From contig JAHKLY010000002.1 in assembly GCA_020854825.1 (NCBI GenBank), positions 31,487 through 95,486 of the forward strand: a stretch of 64,000 nucleotides of DNA. Direction: 5' to 3'. The stretch comes from Candidatus Micrarchaeota archaeon (GTDB lineage Archaea; Micrarchaeota; Micrarchaeia; Anstonellales; JAHKLY01). The notes beneath the pieces are model-generated. The model saw only the letters and a program-made list of their open reading frames with translations. It ran no database searches and was not told the DNA's origin. Position 1 is the stretch's first letter. Every line of letters begins with the position of its first letter. Below, piece after piece: positions 51,754-61,790 of this stretch. The translations under genes were made by a program, and so were the position numbers.

Positions 51754-52710
51754 TCAATATTCAACAATAAAGCTTTCACATCCTTGTGGTTCTACCCACA
51801 TCCCAAATAAAAATAGTTTTGCATACCCAACATATGGAATTCTTAATATCACAATTCCCTTTGATTGTTGTTTTGATACAAGTGAATTACCCCTTTGATA
51901 TGTGGAAGAATGCATTTGTAAGTCAAAAATAGCATTATTATCTCCTTTTATTAAATAGTATTCACCTTGCGGTGAATTTATTTTTAAATAGACTCTATGG
52001 ATTATATCTCCAGTTAAAGCAAATAAATCCTCTTTTTTTGGTTCATAAACCATTATATCATTAGTTTTATTTAATTCATATATTTTTTCTTTGAATTCTA
52101 TATTTTTTACACAAATAGTATTAATATTAGATTTGTCTTGATACTCTCTTTTACAAGTTCCATAATTAAATTTTAATGGCCCATGCATTTCGTAATATTT
52201 TTCAGGATATATTTTAAAGTCTGTACAAAAATCAGTATTTTTATCTAAACAATATACAAATATTGATCCATTTAGGCCATATGTATTTCCTTCAATTTCT
52301 ATGATTGCTGTATTATTTATGTCATTTATATTTTCAACATATATGCTGGGAGCATTAATTTCTTGTTCTCCTTTTAATATGATCAGATCTCCTCTTTCAT
52401 AGTCAGGTAACATACTACAAGATACTATTGCATTTATAGGAATAGAAGTACCTAATAAAAATACAAGTCCAAACCATATACTTAAAGCTAATACAATGGC
52501 TATGACAATTTCTTTTATTTCATTTTTCATTCCTTTTTTAATTGTTCCTTTAACAATATCCATACCTACTATTAACAGAATGGATGATCCTCCTAAAACC
52601 GCAAAAATAACATGTCTAGTAAGTAGATATAATAAAAAAGAAATAATAAGCAGGATATAATGTAAATAATATTTTTCAATAACATCTATTTTTTTTAATA
52701 TTTTTTTCAT
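51754..52710 (-). CDS. signal peptidase I (S26/Sec11-like) with extended C-terminal domain
   Basis: SCSMLPDYERGDLIIL resembles the catalytic-Ser box SGSMEP...GDL. N-terminal TM helices. Confidence 0.5.
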   Translation of the reverse strand: MKKILKKIDVIEKYYLHYILLIISFLLYLLTRHVIFAVLGGSSILLIVGMDIVKGTIKKGMKNEIKEIVIAIVLALSIWFGLVFLLGTSIPINAIVSCSMLPDYERGDLIILKGEQEINAPSIYVENINDINNTAIIEIEGNTYGLNGSIFVYCLDKNTDFCTDFKIYPEKYYEMHGPLKFNYGTCKREYQDKSNINTICVKNIEFKEKIYELNKTNDIMVYEPKKEDLFALTGDIIHRVYLKINSPQGEYYLIKGDNNAIFDLQMHSSTYQRGNSLVSKQQSKGIVILRIPYVGYAKLFLFGMWVEPQGCESFIVEY

Positions 52711-54877: not shown

Positions 54878-55858
54878 TTAAATTAATTTTATTAATCCCC
54901 TGCCTATTTCTGCTAAATCCGCACCTAACATCATAGCAAATGAACGTATAAAGGTATAAGTAATAATTAATGCTATTACTGGTGAAATAAATATTCTCAA
55001 TAATATTGCAAAAAAACTACTTTCAAAAAACATTCCAAGTATTGTTTGATAATCAATACTCATTGCCATGTTCTTAATTAAACTTGCAGTTGCTATATTA
55101 TTACCAATACATAATTCTTCTAACATTTTATTATACTCATCTAGATTTTCAATTTCAAATGCTTCTAAGGATTCTGATGTACTACCTGATACAAAAAGAG
55201 TCATTAAAAAAGCAGAGGGAAGCACAATTGCAAAACCTAATCCCATAGCAATAAACATTGCTCCTACACCCCTAGTTGGAGGAAATGCTCTTAATATAAT
55301 ACCCATGGGTAATATTATTACTGCTAGATAATCTCCAAATTTCATTACCTCAACAAAAAAATACATCCACATTACAAATATCCCTAATACGTTTATTATC
55401 CAAGTGAATGTTCCGATAATTGTATTTGGGAGTGAGGCTGCACCAGGAATAAATGTTTTACTTAATAATCCTCCCATATCAGTTCCTATTATTGAAATTT
55501 CTTTACCAAATGCAAAAAAGAAACCTGCACTAAATACATTTCTATATGTTTTTTTAATTGGCCCCAATATTTTATAAACTTCAAAAACTGCGGCATTAAC
55601 AGGGTCTGAACCAAGTACTGGTGCAGTTGAAGTTGTATGTGTTAATTCATTTGAAACTTCTTGGGTTAAATAAAGCATACCTTGAATAAATCCTATAATT
55701 GCTAAAATTATAAATGCAGTTATTAAAATTTCCATATACTCACTTTTACACCATTTTTCTAATCCTTTTAAAGAAAATGCTCTCGCCATCATATAGAATA
55801 TAGTAATTCCCCCCAAGCAAAAAATTGCCAATATTAGAGTTAATATTATCCAATCCAT
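54878..55858 (-). CDS. paralog 6 of tandem polytopic membrane protein family (R-x-F-P-x-T-R motif)
   Basis: LPMGIILRAFPPTRGVGAMFIAMG motif. C-terminal MLGADLAEIGRGLIKLI. Its start overlaps the upstream gene's stop. Confidence 0.6.
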   Translation of the reverse strand: MDWIILTLILAIFCLGGITIFYMMARAFSLKGLEKWCKSEYMEILITAFIILAIIGFIQGMLYLTQEVSNELTHTTSTAPVLGSDPVNAAVFEVYKILGPIKKTYRNVFSAGFFFAFGKEISIIGTDMGGLLSKTFIPGAASLPNTIIGTFTWIINVLGIFVMWMYFFVEVMKFGDYLAVIILPMGIILRAFPPTRGVGAMFIAMGLGFAIVLPSAFLMTLFVSGSTSESLEAFEIENLDEYNKMLEELCIGNNIATASLIKNMAMSIDYQTILGMFFESSFFAILLRIFISPVIALIITYTFIRSFAMMLGADLAEIGRGLIKLI

Positions 55859-56979
55859 TATATCATCCGTGTTAGATTTGATAAATCTATTTGTTCACCA
55901 AAGAACCTTGAAAATTCTCTCATTGATGTTGCCAATATAGCAAAATTTAATAGGGGTAAAAATAAACTACCCAAAATATTAATTGCCAACATTTTCCAAG
56001 TTGCCATAGATAATGCACTAAACATTATTTTCATAGGTTCAATTATACCAATCTTAAAAGTTATTGGTGCACTTGTATGTATATTTCCATCAAACATATC
56101 TGCAGGACTATTAATATGTAGATTAATAAATTGATTTGCTTGCATTTGTTCTGCAACAAATTCAATAATTCCTTCCCACATTCCAAATACTCCAATACCT
56201 TGTAATGCGACACTATTAATAACTAAGAGCATAGGCCAAAATAAACCCAATGCAATTGTTAATCCAATAAGTGTTCCCCCAAACCTTCTTGTAGGTTCAA
56301 AGCATCTTAGTAATATGCCAATAGGCAGGTATATAGTAAACATTCCAGCATATACATAATTAAATAACATAAGTTGGGTTATAGATGTTACAAGCATTGT
56401 TATTATTCCTATTTGTGCTATTTCAAATACTCTATTTAAACTATTTAATCCCTTTCCAGGAGTAATGCCAATACCCAAACCTATAATATCCACTGAAAAT
56501 TTAAAATTTCCAATAGTTTCTCTTTGAATATTAAAGAAAAGTATGCTTGTTAAAGAAATAGTATTCATTCTCATAAGTGTGGTTAAATAATCTTTTGCTT
56601 CTACGACCATTGAGTCATCGCCAGCACCTAGAACATTACCAAAAATCATTTTAGGAGTTAAACCTCCAGAACATAAAATAAATTCTGAAAATCCAACAAT
56701 AACGAGCAATATTAATACAGTTGCACCAACTTGTAGCATTTCATATTTTGCCCATGTTTCACCTTTTTGTATTTGCATCCCCCTACATATAAGAAATATA
56801 ATTAATAGAATTAAAAGAGAAATCATTATTGCTATATAGCAAGTGACAGCCCATGAAGACATAAATGCATTCAAATCTCCCCCACAAACATCATCTGGAA
56901 ATATATCAAATAATGCAGAATGCGACAGATTAAATAGTAGAATTATGCATAGGATAAATAAGGGAATTTTTTTGATCAT
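55858..56979 (-). CDS. paralog 5 of tandem membrane protein family
   Basis: LPIGILLRCFEPTRRFGGTLIGLT. C-terminal FFGEQIDLSNLTRMI. Signal-peptide-like N-terminus. Confidence 0.6.
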   Translation of the reverse strand: MIKKIPLFILCIILLFNLSHSALFDIFPDDVCGGDLNAFMSSWAVTCYIAIMISLLILLIIFLICRGMQIQKGETWAKYEMLQVGATVLILLVIVGFSEFILCSGGLTPKMIFGNVLGAGDDSMVVEAKDYLTTLMRMNTISLTSILFFNIQRETIGNFKFSVDIIGLGIGITPGKGLNSLNRVFEIAQIGIITMLVTSITQLMLFNYVYAGMFTIYLPIGILLRCFEPTRRFGGTLIGLTIALGLFWPMLLVINSVALQGIGVFGMWEGIIEFVAEQMQANQFINLHINSPADMFDGNIHTSAPITFKIGIIEPMKIMFSALSMATWKMLAINILGSLFLPLLNFAILATSMREFSRFFGEQIDLSNLTRMI

Positions 56980-58181
56980 ATTAATTTCACCAATTCTGCT
57001 ACATTCATATCTGAACCTAAGAATTTTCCCATTTCTTGTATAAATGTAAATGTAATGAATATATTTAATGAAGGCAATATAAAACTACCTATCATTACTA
57101 GAAAAATACCTTCTTGGAGCATAATATAAAAGGCGTCCATATATAAATCACTAATTGCTCCAGCAACCATTGGATAAAGAAGCTGCCGATTTTTAAATAT
57201 AGTGGGAGTTCCACTTGTCATAAATTCTTTAAATGATTTATATAATGGATCTATTATGGCATTTGTAATTTCTCTACCTGGCCTATTAAGAGTAGGAGGG
57301 AAAGCATAGAAATGGTCTTGTGCATAATTTATCATTTCATAAGGATATACTCCAATATATGCAGACATTATTAAATTATTGAGATTAAGCATAATTGGAT
57401 AAACAAAATATAGGCCTAGTGCAAGGGCAATTAATCCCCCCCCTACAGAACGAGTAGTTGGAAAACTTCGCAATATTAATCCCAATGGTAAAAATAAAGC
57501 AAGCATTTTATCTGAAGTAAAACATAGAATAAACATATTACCAATCCAGCTTGTTATTGCAGGTAATAAAATAACCAAAGACCAATCAGTTAGTTTAGAC
57601 ACAATGCCAAACATTGAACCAAAATCATAATTAATTCCAATCATATTAAATGGAGTGAAATTAATTTCTATTGAGAATAACCCTTCTAAAAACATATTTA
57701 TAGTTAACATATGGTATCCTAAATGCATTAGTTCTGCAGCCATTGCTTCTGAATAATAATATGCAGTTTGTAATAAAGTGCACCCCGCATTTGGATCGCT
57801 TGGGTCAGAGTATCCACATAAAGTTACATCACAATCACCTACATTTTGACAAGAAGGGTTATTTAATTTTCCAATTTGATCTAAAGGCCCTATCAATGCA
57901 AGCAATAAAACAATAAGTATGAAGGATGCACTAACTTGCCAAATTTCATTTTTTCCCCATGCACTAATATTTGGAAGGTCCACTGCTTTTCCGATTAAAA
58001 ACACACAAACAGCAATCATAAATACAAGAAAAACTCCAGTAATAGATAGTACTAACCAGTTTAATGATGAATCTTGTAGTCCAATTGTTGGGCATGTTTG
58101 AGTCGGTTGTACTAAACTAAATCCTGTGATATTATTAATACAAAGGAAAAACATAATTACTAAAATTAATTTATTATTCAT
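56976..58181 (-). CDS. paralog 4 of tandem membrane protein family
   Basis: LPLGLILRSFPTTRSVGGGLIALA. C-terminal FLGSDMNVAELVKLI. Confidence 0.6.
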   Translation of the reverse strand: MNNKLILVIMFFLCINNITGFSLVQPTQTCPTIGLQDSSLNWLVLSITGVFLVFMIAVCVFLIGKAVDLPNISAWGKNEIWQVSASFILIVLLLALIGPLDQIGKLNNPSCQNVGDCDVTLCGYSDPSDPNAGCTLLQTAYYYSEAMAAELMHLGYHMLTINMFLEGLFSIEINFTPFNMIGINYDFGSMFGIVSKLTDWSLVILLPAITSWIGNMFILCFTSDKMLALFLPLGLILRSFPTTRSVGGGLIALALGLYFVYPIMLNLNNLIMSAYIGVYPYEMINYAQDHFYAFPPTLNRPGREITNAIIDPLYKSFKEFMTSGTPTIFKNRQLLYPMVAGAISDLYMDAFYIMLQEGIFLVMIGSFILPSLNIFITFTFIQEMGKFLGSDMNVAELVKLI

Positions 58182-58189
58182 TTTTTCAC

Positions 58190-59437
58190 CTATAAGAAAT
58201 GTGATAATCCTGCAATTGATGCATCTCCTCCAAAAAATGGAGCCATTGTTTTTATTGAAGCTAAAATAGCGAATAATACAAGTAAAGGTATAATAACAGT
58301 TAGCATAGCAATTTTACCAATCATATGTAAGATACCGTCTATTTCAAGAGCCATATTCTGTCCTTTAAGATGCATAAGAAGATATGCATCAGAAATCGAA
58401 AAAACTCTATTATAATATTCAGTAAATCCTTTACCTATATTTTTAAGCGATTCAAGAGGATGAAGAAAATCAAAATGTGCATTTTCAAAATCAAATTGAG
58501 GTAACAAACTTGCACTTCCTTCAGTCATAAAATCAGCATAAGGCAGTAGTTTTTGTCCAGTCAAAGAGGTCTGTAATCCTATAAAGTTTCCTGATTCAAA
58601 CATTGCCCTATGGCCAATAATATATGGTAATGGAGCAATATAATACAGGCTAAGAGATGTAGCTATTAAAAACCCCCCCAATTTTCTAGTAAATTCAAAA
58701 CTTCTAAATACAAATCCACTAATTAATAAAACTGGAAATAAAACTTGTGCTACTATATCTACTGCATTTTTTTGAATTATATTAATAATTAAAGAATGTG
58801 ATAAAAGTTTGAATGCTTTAGCATACATTCCAAATTCTACTGAATATCCTACTCCCGGCATAATTTTTAGTATTTCTGGAAGCAACAAGAAAGGAGGTTT
58901 AGGCGCAATTACGTATCCTTGTAATAAAAATTTAAAAGATGAAAAAAAGCTTAATTGTTGGTATAATAATAACATTTGTGTCATTGTTTCTGATATCAAC
59001 CATTCTGTTCTATCTAAAAATGATAGTGTTACACATATATGAGGAGCGTAATTTCTGCCTACTACTTCAAATCCTTTTTTTGTATATAAACACTTTCCAT
59101 CTGGATTTAATGCAACACCTGCCTCTTGCATAGTCAAAGTATTGGATAATATTAAATCAATATTTGGAGTTGTATCTATTGAAGAATATGGATCTAATTG
59201 CACAATTCCTTTGGGGATGATTTCGTTATCTATAATTGGTATTGCAACAACGACAATCAAAAAGAAAAAGAATAGATTTAGAATGACTTGCCCATATTCA
59301 GTTTTTGCCTTTGCTCTTAAAGATTCGTCTTGTAATATAAATGAAAATAAATGTATTAGAACATAAATTCCAAGCATAATTAAAGATAGTACAAATGTAA
59401 GCAAAAGCCCCTGTGTTTGTAATTCTATAGGTATCAT
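58190..59437 (-). CDS. paralog 3 of tandem membrane protein family
   Basis: FPVLLISGFVFRSFEFTRKLGGFLIATS. C-terminal FFGGDASIAGLSHFL. Confidence 0.6.
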   Translation of the reverse strand: MIPIELQTQGLLLTFVLSLIMLGIYVLIHLFSFILQDESLRAKAKTEYGQVILNLFFFFLIVVVAIPIIDNEIIPKGIVQLDPYSSIDTTPNIDLILSNTLTMQEAGVALNPDGKCLYTKKGFEVVGRNYAPHICVTLSFLDRTEWLISETMTQMLLLYQQLSFFSSFKFLLQGYVIAPKPPFLLLPEILKIMPGVGYSVEFGMYAKAFKLLSHSLIINIIQKNAVDIVAQVLFPVLLISGFVFRSFEFTRKLGGFLIATSLSLYYIAPLPYIIGHRAMFESGNFIGLQTSLTGQKLLPYADFMTEGSASLLPQFDFENAHFDFLHPLESLKNIGKGFTEYYNRVFSISDAYLLMHLKGQNMALEIDGILHMIGKIAMLTVIIPLLVLFAILASIKTMAPFFGGDASIAGLSHFL

Positions 59438-60390
59438 TAATCAAACCTCTGTATTAAGAATTTTTGAAAACTATTTATAAAAGATACTGTTATTGCCATA
59501 CTTATTGTAGGTAAAAATAATCCCTGCATTAAAACAACTGACAGCATTATAAATCCATTAAATATTTCATATAGTTTTGGCTCTATTACTTGAAATGTTT
59601 TTCCCCAAGCACCTGTAAATGCATCAAATGTTGTGCTATTTGGTATTTCATCAAATATTATTTGAGTTATTGAAATCATGAAGTTATCTTGTATATCTGA
59701 AACAATATTTTCAACTATTGCTGCGTGGATTACATATGAAAATGGAAAAACAATATAAAATCCAATTGCAACTGCGATTAAAAATGAACCTGAATTTCTT
59801 GTAGTTGGAAATATTCTTAAGAAAATTCCGATTGGCAATACAAAAGGAATCATTATTGCTTTTATAATTGATAATGCAAATTGTTGTATTGCTAAACTTG
59901 CATAAAATGGACTCATTAAAGCAAATACTTTATCTAATGCTTTTGTTAAAGTACTTAAATCAAACGGAGGAAAGGTAACGTCTGCTCTTATTGGAATTCC
60001 TATCAAGGCTACTCCAGGTATGTCATTTAATCCTATCTTTATATTTATTTTAGTTAATATATCCATTCCCACCCTCCCATAGAATACAGATTTCATAGTT
60101 CCAAATGTATCAACAAGTAGGTTTTCTAAATATTCTAAAGATATAGTAAATGGGTCATTTCCAATTAATTGAGTGCTTATTTCAAATAATCCTTGTATTC
60201 CAAATATAATAAATAACAAAATAGCAATAGATACCAATATCTGATATAATTCCATTCTTGCAAAAATTTCAAATTCTTTATTATTTAATAATTTAGAAAG
60301 CAAATAAGAAATTGCAGTTAATGCTACCATAATCATTAAAGGTACGATAGAAAGTTGCAATGCAGTTATAAATGCTTGATCAAATGCCAT
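59437..60390 (-). CDS. paralog 2 of tandem membrane protein family
   Basis: LPIGIFLRIFPTTRNSGSFLIAVA. Stop/start overlap with neighbours. Confidence 0.6.
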   Translation of the reverse strand: MAFDQAFITALQLSIVPLMIMVALTAISYLLSKLLNNKEFEIFARMELYQILVSIAILLFIIFGIQGLFEISTQLIGNDPFTISLEYLENLLVDTFGTMKSVFYGRVGMDILTKINIKIGLNDIPGVALIGIPIRADVTFPPFDLSTLTKALDKVFALMSPFYASLAIQQFALSIIKAIMIPFVLPIGIFLRIFPTTRNSGSFLIAVAIGFYIVFPFSYVIHAAIVENIVSDIQDNFMISITQIIFDEIPNSTTFDAFTGAWGKTFQVIEPKLYEIFNGFIMLSVVLMQGLFLPTISMAITVSFINSFQKFLIQRFD

Positions 60391-60391
60391 A

Positions 60392-61663
60392 TTATCCCAA
60401 CTTTAATTTTTCAATTCCAAATATTTTTGTTTCTCCTCCTAAAATTCCAGAGATATTTGCAAATAAGGTTAAACAAATAATAACATCCATAAAAAAACAA
60501 ATAGCAATAAAAATAAACTTCTGTAAAACTTGATTTGCTAAAGCGGCTGTGTAATGAATTGGTTCAGCTGCAAATTCACTTAAATTAATGCCTAATGCAG
60601 CACCAGCAAGTGCAGTTGTTAATTTGGATAATTTACTTAAGGTTCCAAATAATAAATTGTTTATTGTATTGCTAATTACTTCTCCTGCTCTTATCACAGA
60701 TCTTCCAATATATGCAAAAAAGTTTTTTATTTTATCACCTAAATTTGAATTCCAATTAGTTTCTTCGTTTATATCATTTATATTATCTGTTAATGAACCA
60801 AATTCATCAATTAATATATCTCCCCCTTCAGGATAATGTTCATCCATTTTTTCCTGCATTTTTGTTTCATCTTCAAGTTTTTGTTCTAATCTTTCTTCTA
60901 ATAATGCAACAGAAATTGGATCCTCATTATCATATGATAAACCACCTAAGAACATATTGACATATATATATTGATTAAATAAAATAGTCATTGGAAAAAT
61001 GAAATAAAAAGTAATTGCTAATGCAATTAATGTAGAACCTAATCTTCTTGTTATGGGTAATGCGCGTAATATTATCCCCAATGGGAAAAATATTGTGAAT
61101 GAAGTTATTTTAATAAAATCCAATATGGAATCCATTACAGATACTAAAAAGTTTGTCATAATAACAGTTTTAGTTATATCTCCAATCATATCTGCAACTA
61201 TATTCAATCCTGCTAATGGTTGCATGCTTACACTCACTACAAAACCAACAAGACCCCCCATAGGTATGGGAACTCCAAATGTTATTCCATATTTAGAATA
61301 ACCAGATAAAATTGCACTAGTTCGTACTCCTCTTTCCGCAATATTTTGTAGATTTAAATCCAGTACTTTTAGAAACACTTTTCCTTGTGTAAAATATACG
61401 GGATCGTTTATATCTAAAGGTCCTGAATAACCTATTAATGCATAACATACTAATAATACCACATAATGAAGTAAAAACATCCCAAGAAAAACTATTAATA
61501 CAGAATAAATCAATTCTTTAAATTCTTTTTGTGCCCAGCCTTTTAATTGAGGAAATCCTCCCAAAGTAGATATTAAATATGCAAATAAAGCACCGCCTAG
61601 ACTTATCATTAATCCTATAAATACTAGTACATATGCTTGTGAACTAAATACCATATAATTCAT
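60392..61663 (-). CDS. paralog 1 (first gene) of tandem membrane protein family, with acidic insertion
   Basis: FPLGIILRALPITRRLGSTLIALA motif. E/D-rich insertion (EERLEQKLEDETKMQEKMDEH). C-terminal FGIEKLKLG. Confidence 0.6.
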   Translation of the reverse strand: MNYMVFSSQAYVLVFIGLMISLGGALFAYLISTLGGFPQLKGWAQKEFKELIYSVLIVFLGMFLLHYVVLLVCYALIGYSGPLDINDPVYFTQGKVFLKVLDLNLQNIAERGVRTSAILSGYSKYGITFGVPIPMGGLVGFVVSVSMQPLAGLNIVADMIGDITKTVIMTNFLVSVMDSILDFIKITSFTIFFPLGIILRALPITRRLGSTLIALAITFYFIFPMTILFNQYIYVNMFLGGLSYDNEDPISVALLEERLEQKLEDETKMQEKMDEHYPEGGDILIDEFGSLTDNINDINEETNWNSNLGDKIKNFFAYIGRSVIRAGEVISNTINNLLFGTLSKLSKLTTALAGAALGINLSEFAAEPIHYTAALANQVLQKFIFIAICFFMDVIICLTLFANISGILGGETKIFGIEKLKLG

Positions 61664-61724
61664 TTAATTGTGTTAAATATATAAAGGTTTATTTATCGGG
61701 CATTTATAAAGAAATAGTATAAAT

Positions 61725-61790
61725 CGCTCAGTCCGCTCGTCAATCCTCATTGGCTTGCGCCTTAGTGATCACCTTCGTCCTCATTGCGAT
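61725..61790 (-). ncRNA. candidate box C/D-like sRNA or structured 5' leader, upstream of the membrane-paralog operon
   Basis: Minus strand: AUCGC-AAUGAGGA-[12 nt CGAAGGUGAUCA]-CUAA-GGCGCAAGCC-AAUGAGGA-[12 nt UUGACGAGCGGA]-CUGA-GCG. Two C-like boxes (UGAGGA variant of UGAUGA), D'/D boxes, two 12-nt spacers, terminal CGC/GCG stem. It is the only GC-rich intergenic island in the window. Confidence 0.3.

Follow-up and report, generated by a model that had tools for sequence, protein, structure and literature searches.

Six tandem VirB6-like membrane protein genes in Micrarchaeota, probably the channel of a type IV secretion-like system

The six-gene array

The DNA stretch analyzed here (the window, 64,000 nucleotides) covers positions 31487-95486 of contig C2 of a Micrarchaeota (DPANN) genome, G000, and includes six consecutive minus-strand genes (54878-61663) that encode paralogous, polytopic membrane proteins. 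We predict that the six proteins probably constitute the membrane channel of a conjugation-type machine that resembles a type IV secretion system (T4SS), has a pilin and a split VirB4 motor of its own, and is carried by nearly all sampled members of this phylum of tiny, probably host-dependent archaea. The open reading frame (ORF) listing reproduces exactly the gene coordinates given in a preliminary description of this DNA. The supposition made there that the archaeal genome is reduced is also supported: the assembly is 828 kb in size and 97.6% complete, and the nearest relatives of its proteins are from Candidatus Micrarchaeota metagenome-assembled genomes.

The genes are closely spaced (Table 1). 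Read from the sequence, the junctions in array order are TAAtATG (1-nt gap), TAATG (1-nt overlap), TAGgtgaaaaaATG (8-nt gap), ATGA (4-nt overlap) and TAATG (1-nt overlap), and the 8-nt spacer TAGgtgaaaaaATG contains a GGTGA-like site. Overlapping or near-abutting stops and starts, as originally described, are therefore present, in the form of an overlap or a 1-nt gap at four of the five junctions and of the 8-nt spacer at the fifth. Such overlaps and short gaps (1-8 nt) favor translation of the genes together from a single transcript. Judging from sequence, the TATA-like TTTATATA upstream of the first gene is likely the array promoter. A search of sequencing runs for the window DNA returned no RNA run, only DNA runs of sludge metagenomes, which are a possible source.

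Table 1. Coordinates of the array genes and of other features in the window, elsewhere in the G000 genome and in other Micrarchaeota genomes
Feature	Position	Strand	Remarks
Paralog 1, 423 aa, first array gene	window 60392..61663	minus	VirB6-like, five predicted transmembrane helices; long acidic second external region; family profile E 6e-72
Paralog 2, 317 aa	window 59437..60390	minus	In the tree with position-2 genes of other genomes
Paralog 3, 415 aa	window 58190..59437	minus	Large first external loop
Paralog 4, 401 aa	window 56976..58181	minus	N-terminal signal-like segment; Cys-rich first external loop
Paralog 5, 373 aa	window 55858..56979	minus	N-terminal signal-like segment; in the tree with position-5 genes elsewhere
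Paralog 6, 326 aa, minimal member	window 54878..55858	minus	AlphaFold-modeled; five transmembrane helices, two external helical regions, C-terminal amphipathic helix
Candidate array promoter	window 61664..61700	minus	TATA-like TTTATATA ~24 nt 5' of the first ATG, from sequence
Possible C/D-box small RNA	window 61728-61784	minus	57 nt, intergenic
Membrane-anchored ORF, 318 aa	window 51754-52710	minus
Module with ~275-aa protein, ATPase, Zn-ribbon protein and coiled-coil protein	G000 C4:60030-63627
CedB/VirB4-like ATPase	G000 C4:61223-62797
Pilin genes	G000 C7:29814-30287; C3:274014-274448		Each within a few hundred bases of a contig end
Second six-gene array	G000 C3:77389-84671	plus	409, 281, 664, 375, 362 and 355 aa
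Two giant proteins	G000 C3:84672-93769		1640 and 1396 aa
~245-aa polytopic protein	G000 C1:37758-38483
Mini-locus with solo seventh paralog	G015 L026:7602-11116		Second ATPase of 451 aa
Mini-locus with solo seventh paralog	G041 L027:5830-9079		Second ATPase of 351 aa
Second ATPase and family match	G058:C20:7671-10996		Family f5
Second ATPase and family match	G088:C1:465-3756		Family f5
Second ATPase and family match	G133:C6:10998-14112		Family f5

Motif, architecture and membrane topology

The six proteins are 14-23% identical in their alignment, the invariant columns of which are E47, G196, R200, T205, R206, G209, I213 and P224 (paralog-1 numbering); the motif of paralog 1 reads RALPITRRLG, at residue 200. 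Conservation of the motif, noticed at first in the array, extends to the family: the G, R, R, G and P of LPxGIxLRxFxxTRxxGGxLIA...P are invariant across 98 family members, while the F and T are retained in 84 and 83 of the 98 aligned sequences, respectively. By eye, the consensus GP.FI.ALLWQPT.RFFE.W of TrwI, the VirB6 protein of R388, resembles LP.GI.LR.FP.TR and has a similar relative position; we base no claim on this.

Hydropathy and an AlphaFold model (described below) indicate a common layout. A short K/E loop (AWAKxE) connects the first two transmembrane helices (TM1 and TM2), and TM2 is separated from TM3 by a variable region of ~80-150 aa. TM3 and TM4 are joined by the tight turn LPxGIxLRxFxxTRxxGG. 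Between TM4 and TM5 is another variable region, and the short tail LGxD....L..LI follows TM5. The N-terminal helix and hydrophobic core of the preliminary description were thus an incomplete account of a protein with five transmembrane segments. Four of the six proteins clearly carry the C-terminal LGxD...L..LI tail; paralogs 1 and 2 have different ends, and the tail is to this extent less general than first described. The external regions vary strongly in length and composition among the paralogs, and some are Cys-rich.

The net charge is +2.4 for the TM3-TM4 loop and -2.0 and -2.5 for the two long external regions. An extra signal-like, hydrophobic N-terminal segment was identified in 6 of the 12 G000 paralogs (the genome encodes a second array, see below). 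The charge balance and the signal-like segments suggest that the paralogs are N-out, five-TM, C-in proteins with a large external loop, which is the topology of VirB6-type proteins. The VirB6 of Agrobacterium tumefaciens has been reported to be N-out and C-in, with five transmembrane helices. In this orientation the two variable external regions would face out of the cell, and the positively charged, invariant R-x-F-x-x-T-R-x-x-G turn and the conserved C-terminal tail would face the cytoplasm, on the side of the ATPase.

Fold of the minimal paralog

The AlphaFold2 model of paralog 6, made from a 98-row alignment, has a predicted local distance difference test (pLDDT) value of 83.1 and a predicted template modeling score of 0.76. 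Foldseek found nothing in the PDB at E<=1e-3; among natural proteins, the TrwI/VirB6 chains of the R388 T4SS reached the highest probability (0.72). In a VIA scan of 48,161 chains, which is independent of Foldseek, DotA (9ngy) was at rank 2 (Z 7.4, 265 residues aligned) and TrwI/VirB6 (7o3v_F) at rank 3 (Z 7.0, 224/261 aligned, model residues 1-319), and no other match in the top rows came close to full length. When the Foldseek matches were re-aligned with VIA, the top four were all from T4SS (8rtd_I, Z 7.8; 8rt9_F, Z 7.8, with 234/272 residues aligned over model residues 1-309; 9ngy, Z 7.4; 7o3v_F, Z 7.0). A shape search of the ESM Atlas retrieved a CTnDOT_TraJ cluster (TM-scores 0.52/0.54) and a cluster with TrbL_3 and T4SS_pilin (TM-score 0.44). 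VirB6-type T4SS proteins are therefore at or near the top in all four structure searches (three of the PDB and one of the ESM Atlas). We take the fold searches alone as a lead, and no proof. Complex prediction for paralogs 5 and 6 gave no verdict (score 0.02).

Gene context in other Micrarchaeota

Gene context provides stronger evidence than the fold scores. We compared the surroundings of the array in genomes G102, G015, G037, G041 and G107, which represent three families other than that of G000 and of which four are single-contig assemblies. In all five, the array has exactly six paralogs and the next two genes encode ~275-aa proteins that are paralogs of each other; an ATPase of ~510 aa is next after this pair in four. 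The ATPase of G037 is 1.8 kb downstream of the array, where the ORF went uncalled owing to an in-frame TAA. Three of the four genomes with the ATPase next to the pair encode after it a Zn-ribbon membrane protein (~120-160 aa) and a coiled-coil/winged helix-turn-helix protein (~250 aa). Upstream of the array are a ~245-aa polytopic protein (four of five genomes) and small pilin-like genes (two of five, G102 and G015). Counting all arrays examined, seven of seven have six paralogs.

The ~245-aa protein has 4-5 hydrophobic segments and a weak match to the BPSS1780 family, and was not assigned to a family. The G000 copy is encoded alone, beside genes for MgtE and GluRS.

In G000 itself, the module of the ~275-aa protein, ATPase, Zn-ribbon protein and coiled-coil protein is on contig C4, and the pilin genes are near the ends of contigs C7 and C3. 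The position of both pilin genes near contig ends suggests that C7 and C3 may be contiguous at this point and that tandem pilin paralogs interrupted the assembly. In public genomes, the same detached module is seen at the 80 closest ATPase loci, in some cases with pilin genes immediately upstream; 75 of the 80 are labeled as Micrarchaeota, Micrarchaeia or one of their orders.

A solo seventh paralog occurs in G015 and G041, in a mini-locus composed of a pilin gene, the paralog, a gene for a ~250-aa protein and one for a second, divergent ATPase. It has the appearance of a second system of this type, in a simpler form. The second ATPases are HerA/VirB4-like and the ~250-aa protein is anchored by a transmembrane segment. 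Genomes of family f5 carry two arrays, and in three of them a second ATPase copy is found 0.9 kb downstream of a family match on the same contig. G000 has a single ATPase match.

Within the window, the neighbors of the array are housekeeping genes (RpoL, a Csl4-like protein, DUF373, PCNA, RIO kinase, Trm5 and DNA alkylation repair). The intergenic region just upstream of the first array gene includes a stretch of higher GC content that is laid out like an archaeal C/D-box small RNA (ATGAGGA, 12 nt, CTAA, a spacer, ATGAGGA, 12 nt, CTGA); an Rfam search of this possible small RNA returned no match.

Candidate partner proteins

The ATPase scores above the cut-offs of DUF87, AAA_10 (59.8 bits, cut-off 27.5) and P-loop_TraG. 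Its best NCBIfam models are CedB (8e-20), VirB4-like CD1110, CedD, VirB4_plasma and TraC, all ahead of HerA; for CedB, CD1110, CedD and TraC its score is below the equivalog cut-off. Against CedB it reaches 71 bits, far short of the equivalog cut-off of 700. Matches in the PDB are HerA proteins and VirB4 (4ag5). Thus, an ATPase of the VirB4 family belongs to the system.

The model of the ~275-aa protein (pLDDT 84.6) has an N-terminal transmembrane hairpin and an alpha/beta domain. The top 14 Foldseek matches are all TrwK/VirB4 (probability 1.00, E 1.5e-3 to 1.6e-2), and the first-ranked VIA match, 7o42_A (Z 9.1, rmsd 3.4 over 162 residues), is the only one that spans the whole domain. Its neighbors in the Atlas are N-terminal parts of TraC/VirB4/HerA-like ATPases, including TraC proteins from the Candidate Phyla Radiation (CPR). 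The occurrence of the VirB4 N-domain fold on a separate ~275-aa gene indicates a VirB4 divided between two proteins, of which one is the membrane-anchored N-domain and the other the ATPase. According to the model, therefore, a membrane-anchored (VirB3-like) N-terminal domain of VirB4 is present.

The small pilin-like proteins have a signal peptide and two hydrophobic helices. The G000 copy on C7 scores 27.4 bits on PF18895 (T4SS_pilin; cut-off 26.6). Among 15 pilin candidates, nine match PF18895 and seven match PF04956 (TrbC/VirB2; best score 27.3 bits, cut-off 27.9), and the best PDB match of the pilin profile is TrwL, the R388 pilin (8s6h, E 0.0017). Thus, a VirB2/TrbC-type pilin is present. 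The pilin profile also aligns to the TM1-loop-TM2 hairpin of the array family (hhalign E 8e-4, probability 25%), and the same relation between pilin and channel hairpin has been described for CedA1 and CedA and for VirB2 and VirB6 (PMC9905601).

The 318-aa membrane-anchored ORF in the window has no Pfam match at E<=0.001. Its stretch SCSMLPDYERGDLII is reminiscent of the region around the catalytic Ser in type I signal peptidases. Should this resemblance be real, the protein could process the long signal peptides of pilins.

Phyletic distribution and antiquity of the six paralogs

A profile of the six proteins retrieved 2946 cluster representatives at E<=1e-3 (2243 at E<=1e-10), of which the best 150 were listed. 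Some relatives have very long insertions, of up to 1270 aa, and the named members that we looked up are all annotated as 'hypothetical protein [Candidatus Micrarchaeota archaeon]'. Within the phylum the family is widespread: it was identified in 135 of 151 sampled Micrarchaeota genomes, usually in tandem arrays, and gave no match in families f12, f16 and f18-f20 or in part of f13. When the ATPase and family profiles were run on the same 151 genomes, both were found in 134, neither in 16, the family without the ATPase in one (G144, 89% complete) and the ATPase without the family in none.

We constructed a maximum-likelihood tree of 44 paralogs. For each position in the array (p1-p6), the genes of G015, G107, G037 and G041, which span two families, form a clade with 100/100 support. 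Genes of G102 fall in the p2, p4 and p5 clades. From the two G000 arrays (A and B), A2 and B2 are in the p2 clade (support 91/86) and A5 and B5 in the p5 clade; the G000 branches are long, and the remaining G000 placements are unsure. The existence of position-wise clades across families implies that the six-fold duplication and the gene order predate the split of these families. Thus, the six genes are real, ancient paralogs.

The second G000 array was found by the six-protein profile (E 1e-27 to 6e-19), a similarity well outside what chance would produce. Its six genes are tightly packed, and five of the six proteins have a signal-like N-terminal segment. The pairing of A2 with B2 and of A5 with B5 in the tree suggests a later duplication of the whole array in G000. 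Together the two arrays encode twelve VirB6-like proteins and occupy ~14 kb (1.7%) of the genome. The second array is immediately followed by genes for two giant proteins that are predicted to be secreted or membrane-anchored. No Pfam match was identified for these, the NCBIfam match (acidic double-disulfide repeat) is faint, and an Atlas search of the 1640-aa protein gave no usable match. The two giant proteins may act as adhesins or cooperate with the machine at the cell surface.

Such features are also compatible with a different use of six VirB6-like proteins, in which they would be interchangeable variants of a channel or adhesin with external loops that fit different hosts or evade host defenses, a possibility discussed for the VirB6 arrays of Rickettsiales. 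The external regions do differ in length and composition, with Cys-rich examples and the long insertions seen in relatives; G000 has two arrays, one trailed by giant secreted proteins; and tandem VirB6 paralogs are known in Rickettsiales (PMC7648143). We consider this explanation unlikely, as the overlaps and short gaps point to joint translation, and the fully supported clade for each position, the kept gene order and the constant number of six paralogs per array suggest fixed, non-redundant roles. Given the long-ago divergence and kept order, the proteins are most likely six non-redundant subunits and less likely interchangeable variants.

Proposed function

The suggestion in the preliminary description that the six proteins are channel components of the VirB6/TrbL type is supported by the fold searches and by the pilins and split VirB4/CedB-like ATPase that flank the array in relatives. 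We propose that the proteins would be the VirB6-equivalent inner-membrane channel or platform subunits of a chromosomal, vertically inherited T4SS derivative that is core to most Micrarchaeota. The six would most likely assemble as one hetero-oligomeric ring or platform, possibly with a pseudo-six-fold symmetry that matches a hexameric motor. Its partners would be the VirB2-type pilins, the split VirB4 and the small accessory proteins. The platform would extract VirB2-like pilins into a conjugative-type pilus or conduit, and the conduit may pass a macromolecule across the envelope. This would be either DNA, which is what Ced and Ted carry in other archaea, or a different cargo that passes between the archaeon and its host. 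Our computations establish the motif, paralogy and position-wise orthology, the topology signal and fold neighbors, and the neighborhoods and co-occurrence of the genes. We infer the complex of six, its contact with the ATPase, the formation of a pilus, and the substrate and direction of transport.

Several results weigh against this proposal. Pfam searches returned no match for the six proteins (E<=1) or for 98 relatives (E<=0.01), NCBIfam none for either set, and a sequence profile search of the PDB no true match to the family. Comparison of the family with a 34-sequence TrwI/VirB6 alignment by hhalign gave a probability of 0.2%, and thus no link to PF04610/TrwI at the sequence level. CedA and TedA, both VirB6-like, are likewise mutually undetectable by BLAST (PMC9905601). 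The Z-scores of 7.0-7.8 are within the range that VIA warns can arise by chance for helical bundles, and designed helical repeats and BAR domains score slightly below the T4SS chains. The sequence of paralog 4 is present in the Atlas, where its nearest clusters are Micrarchaeota hypothetical proteins; a search with the Atlas's own model of it (pLDDT 0.61) retrieved only family members and unrelated lyases (TM-score ~0.3). The match between the pilin profile and the TM1-TM2 hairpin is weak and could reflect transmembrane composition. In G000, the array adjoins neither the ATPase nor the pilin genes, which are on other contigs. Finally, the co-occurrence of the family and the ATPase tracks taxonomic families, and so reflects few independent events.

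The lack of sequence similarity to any known family, and Z-scores below 8 for an all-helical model, are consistent with a lineage-specific membrane protein that is not VirB6 (a transporter, or a protein for envelope/S-layer biogenesis or membrane remodeling) and is merely co-regulated with the HerA/VirB4-like ATPase module, in which case the fold matches would be generic. The little lower scores of designed repeats and BAR domains and the housekeeping neighbors in the window fit the same explanation. We regard it as improbable: four structure searches converge on VirB6-type proteins, and only these match near full length; the neighbors in other genomes were independently identified as VirB2 pilin and split VirB4; VirB6 is the sole polytopic component expected in such a system; and no ABC or other transporter ATPase is adjacent. 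Membership in a characterized transporter family such as ABC-2 or FtsX, named earlier as an outcome that would speak against a channel, received no support, since there was no Pfam or NCBIfam match and no ABC ATPase among the neighbors scanned or compared with G000. A match to an ABC transporter was limited to PDB-profile rows at E~0.06 over a low-complexity transmembrane stretch, and was rejected.

A channel with its own pilin and split VirB4 motor thus remains our preferred reading. A more elaborate form of it is speculative, and we put it forward with some doubt. This would be a vertically inherited, T4SS-like organelle in most Micrarchaeota, with a fixed hetero-hexameric VirB6 channel symmetry-matched to a hexameric split-VirB4 motor. 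It might act as a conduit by which these ultrasmall cells obtain DNA, or other macromolecules that they are unable to make, from hosts, and would be the archaeal counterpart of an essential T4SS of Patescibacteria.

Comparison with known systems

DPANN archaea are regarded as living on other cells. A kit present in ~90% of the sampled genomes of the phylum is a testable candidate for the molecular hardware of this dependence, as a cell-to-cell conduit or DNA-uptake machine of Micrarchaeota. The analysis also gives a name to thousands of 'hypothetical proteins' that make up a family lacking a Pfam model. New here are a T4SS/Ced-like system in a new phylum, a six-paralog VirB6 and a split VirB4. 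Literature on DPANN or Micrarchaeota combined with VirB6, VirB4, T4SS or Ced did not describe the system, in a coverage that is incomplete and has subscription journals largely outside it, so that an earlier description is possible. The nearest prior descriptions concern nanohaloarchaea, whose giant proteins include a VirB4-like domain (PMC10266531), and the T4SS of Patescibacteria (PMC12102498).

The best structural neighbors are VirB6/TrbL-type proteins, namely TrwI of R388 (8rt9/7o3v), DotA of the Legionella Dot/Icm system and CTnDOT TraJ. Like the array proteins, these are polytopic and helical and have ~300-400 aa; the predicted N-out/C-in topology with five transmembrane helices and a large external loop is common to both, as is encoding together with a VirB4-type ATPase and a VirB2-type pilin. 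Unlike them, the Micrarchaeota proteins have no detectable sequence similarity to the type, are from an archaeal host and are encoded in a chromosomal, non-mobile locus. R388 TrwI is the product of one gene and is a homopentamer in the structure, whereas Micrarchaeota have six fixed paralogs with their own invariant R-x-F-x-x-T-R-x-x-G turn. This natural case of a single VirB6 gene replaced by six fixed paralogs bears on the symmetry matching of VirB6 and VirB4 in T4SS.

In archaea, DNA import by Ced (Sulfolobales) and Ted (Thermoproteales) involves VirB6-like CedA/TedA, the VirB2-like pilins CedA1/TedC and VirB4-like CedB/TedB (PMC9905601). These too are minimal, domesticated chromosomal T4SS derivatives composed of a pilin, a polytopic channel and a VirB4-like ATPase. 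The Micrarchaeota ATPase has its best NCBIfam match in CedB, and a cluster with the CedA1 domain in an Atlas feature search (score 0.86) is a weak lead in the same direction. Different from Ced and Ted are the DPANN phylum, the 6, 7 or 12 copies of the channel gene and the split VirB4. The Micrarchaeota system would work like Ced/Ted and is not a member of Ced, and it extends the T4SS-derived systems of archaea beyond those two.

The rvh T4SS of Rickettsiales (e.g., Anaplasma) likewise has tandem VirB6-like genes, a small host-dependent genome and variable, sometimes very large non-transmembrane regions (PMC7648143). The rvh arrays differ in that they are bacterial, are recognizable as TrbL/VirB6 by sequence, have four to five copies and carry giant C-terminal extensions. 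Patescibacteria (CPR) have a reduced chromosomal T4SS (VirB4, VirB3-like, VirB6 and VirB2-like proteins) that is widely conserved in these ultrasmall episymbionts and, in one strain, was reported to be essential for epibiotic growth (PMC12102498). Unlike the Micrarchaeota system, it is bacterial, belongs to the MPF_FATA type and has only one VirB6 and an undivided VirB4.

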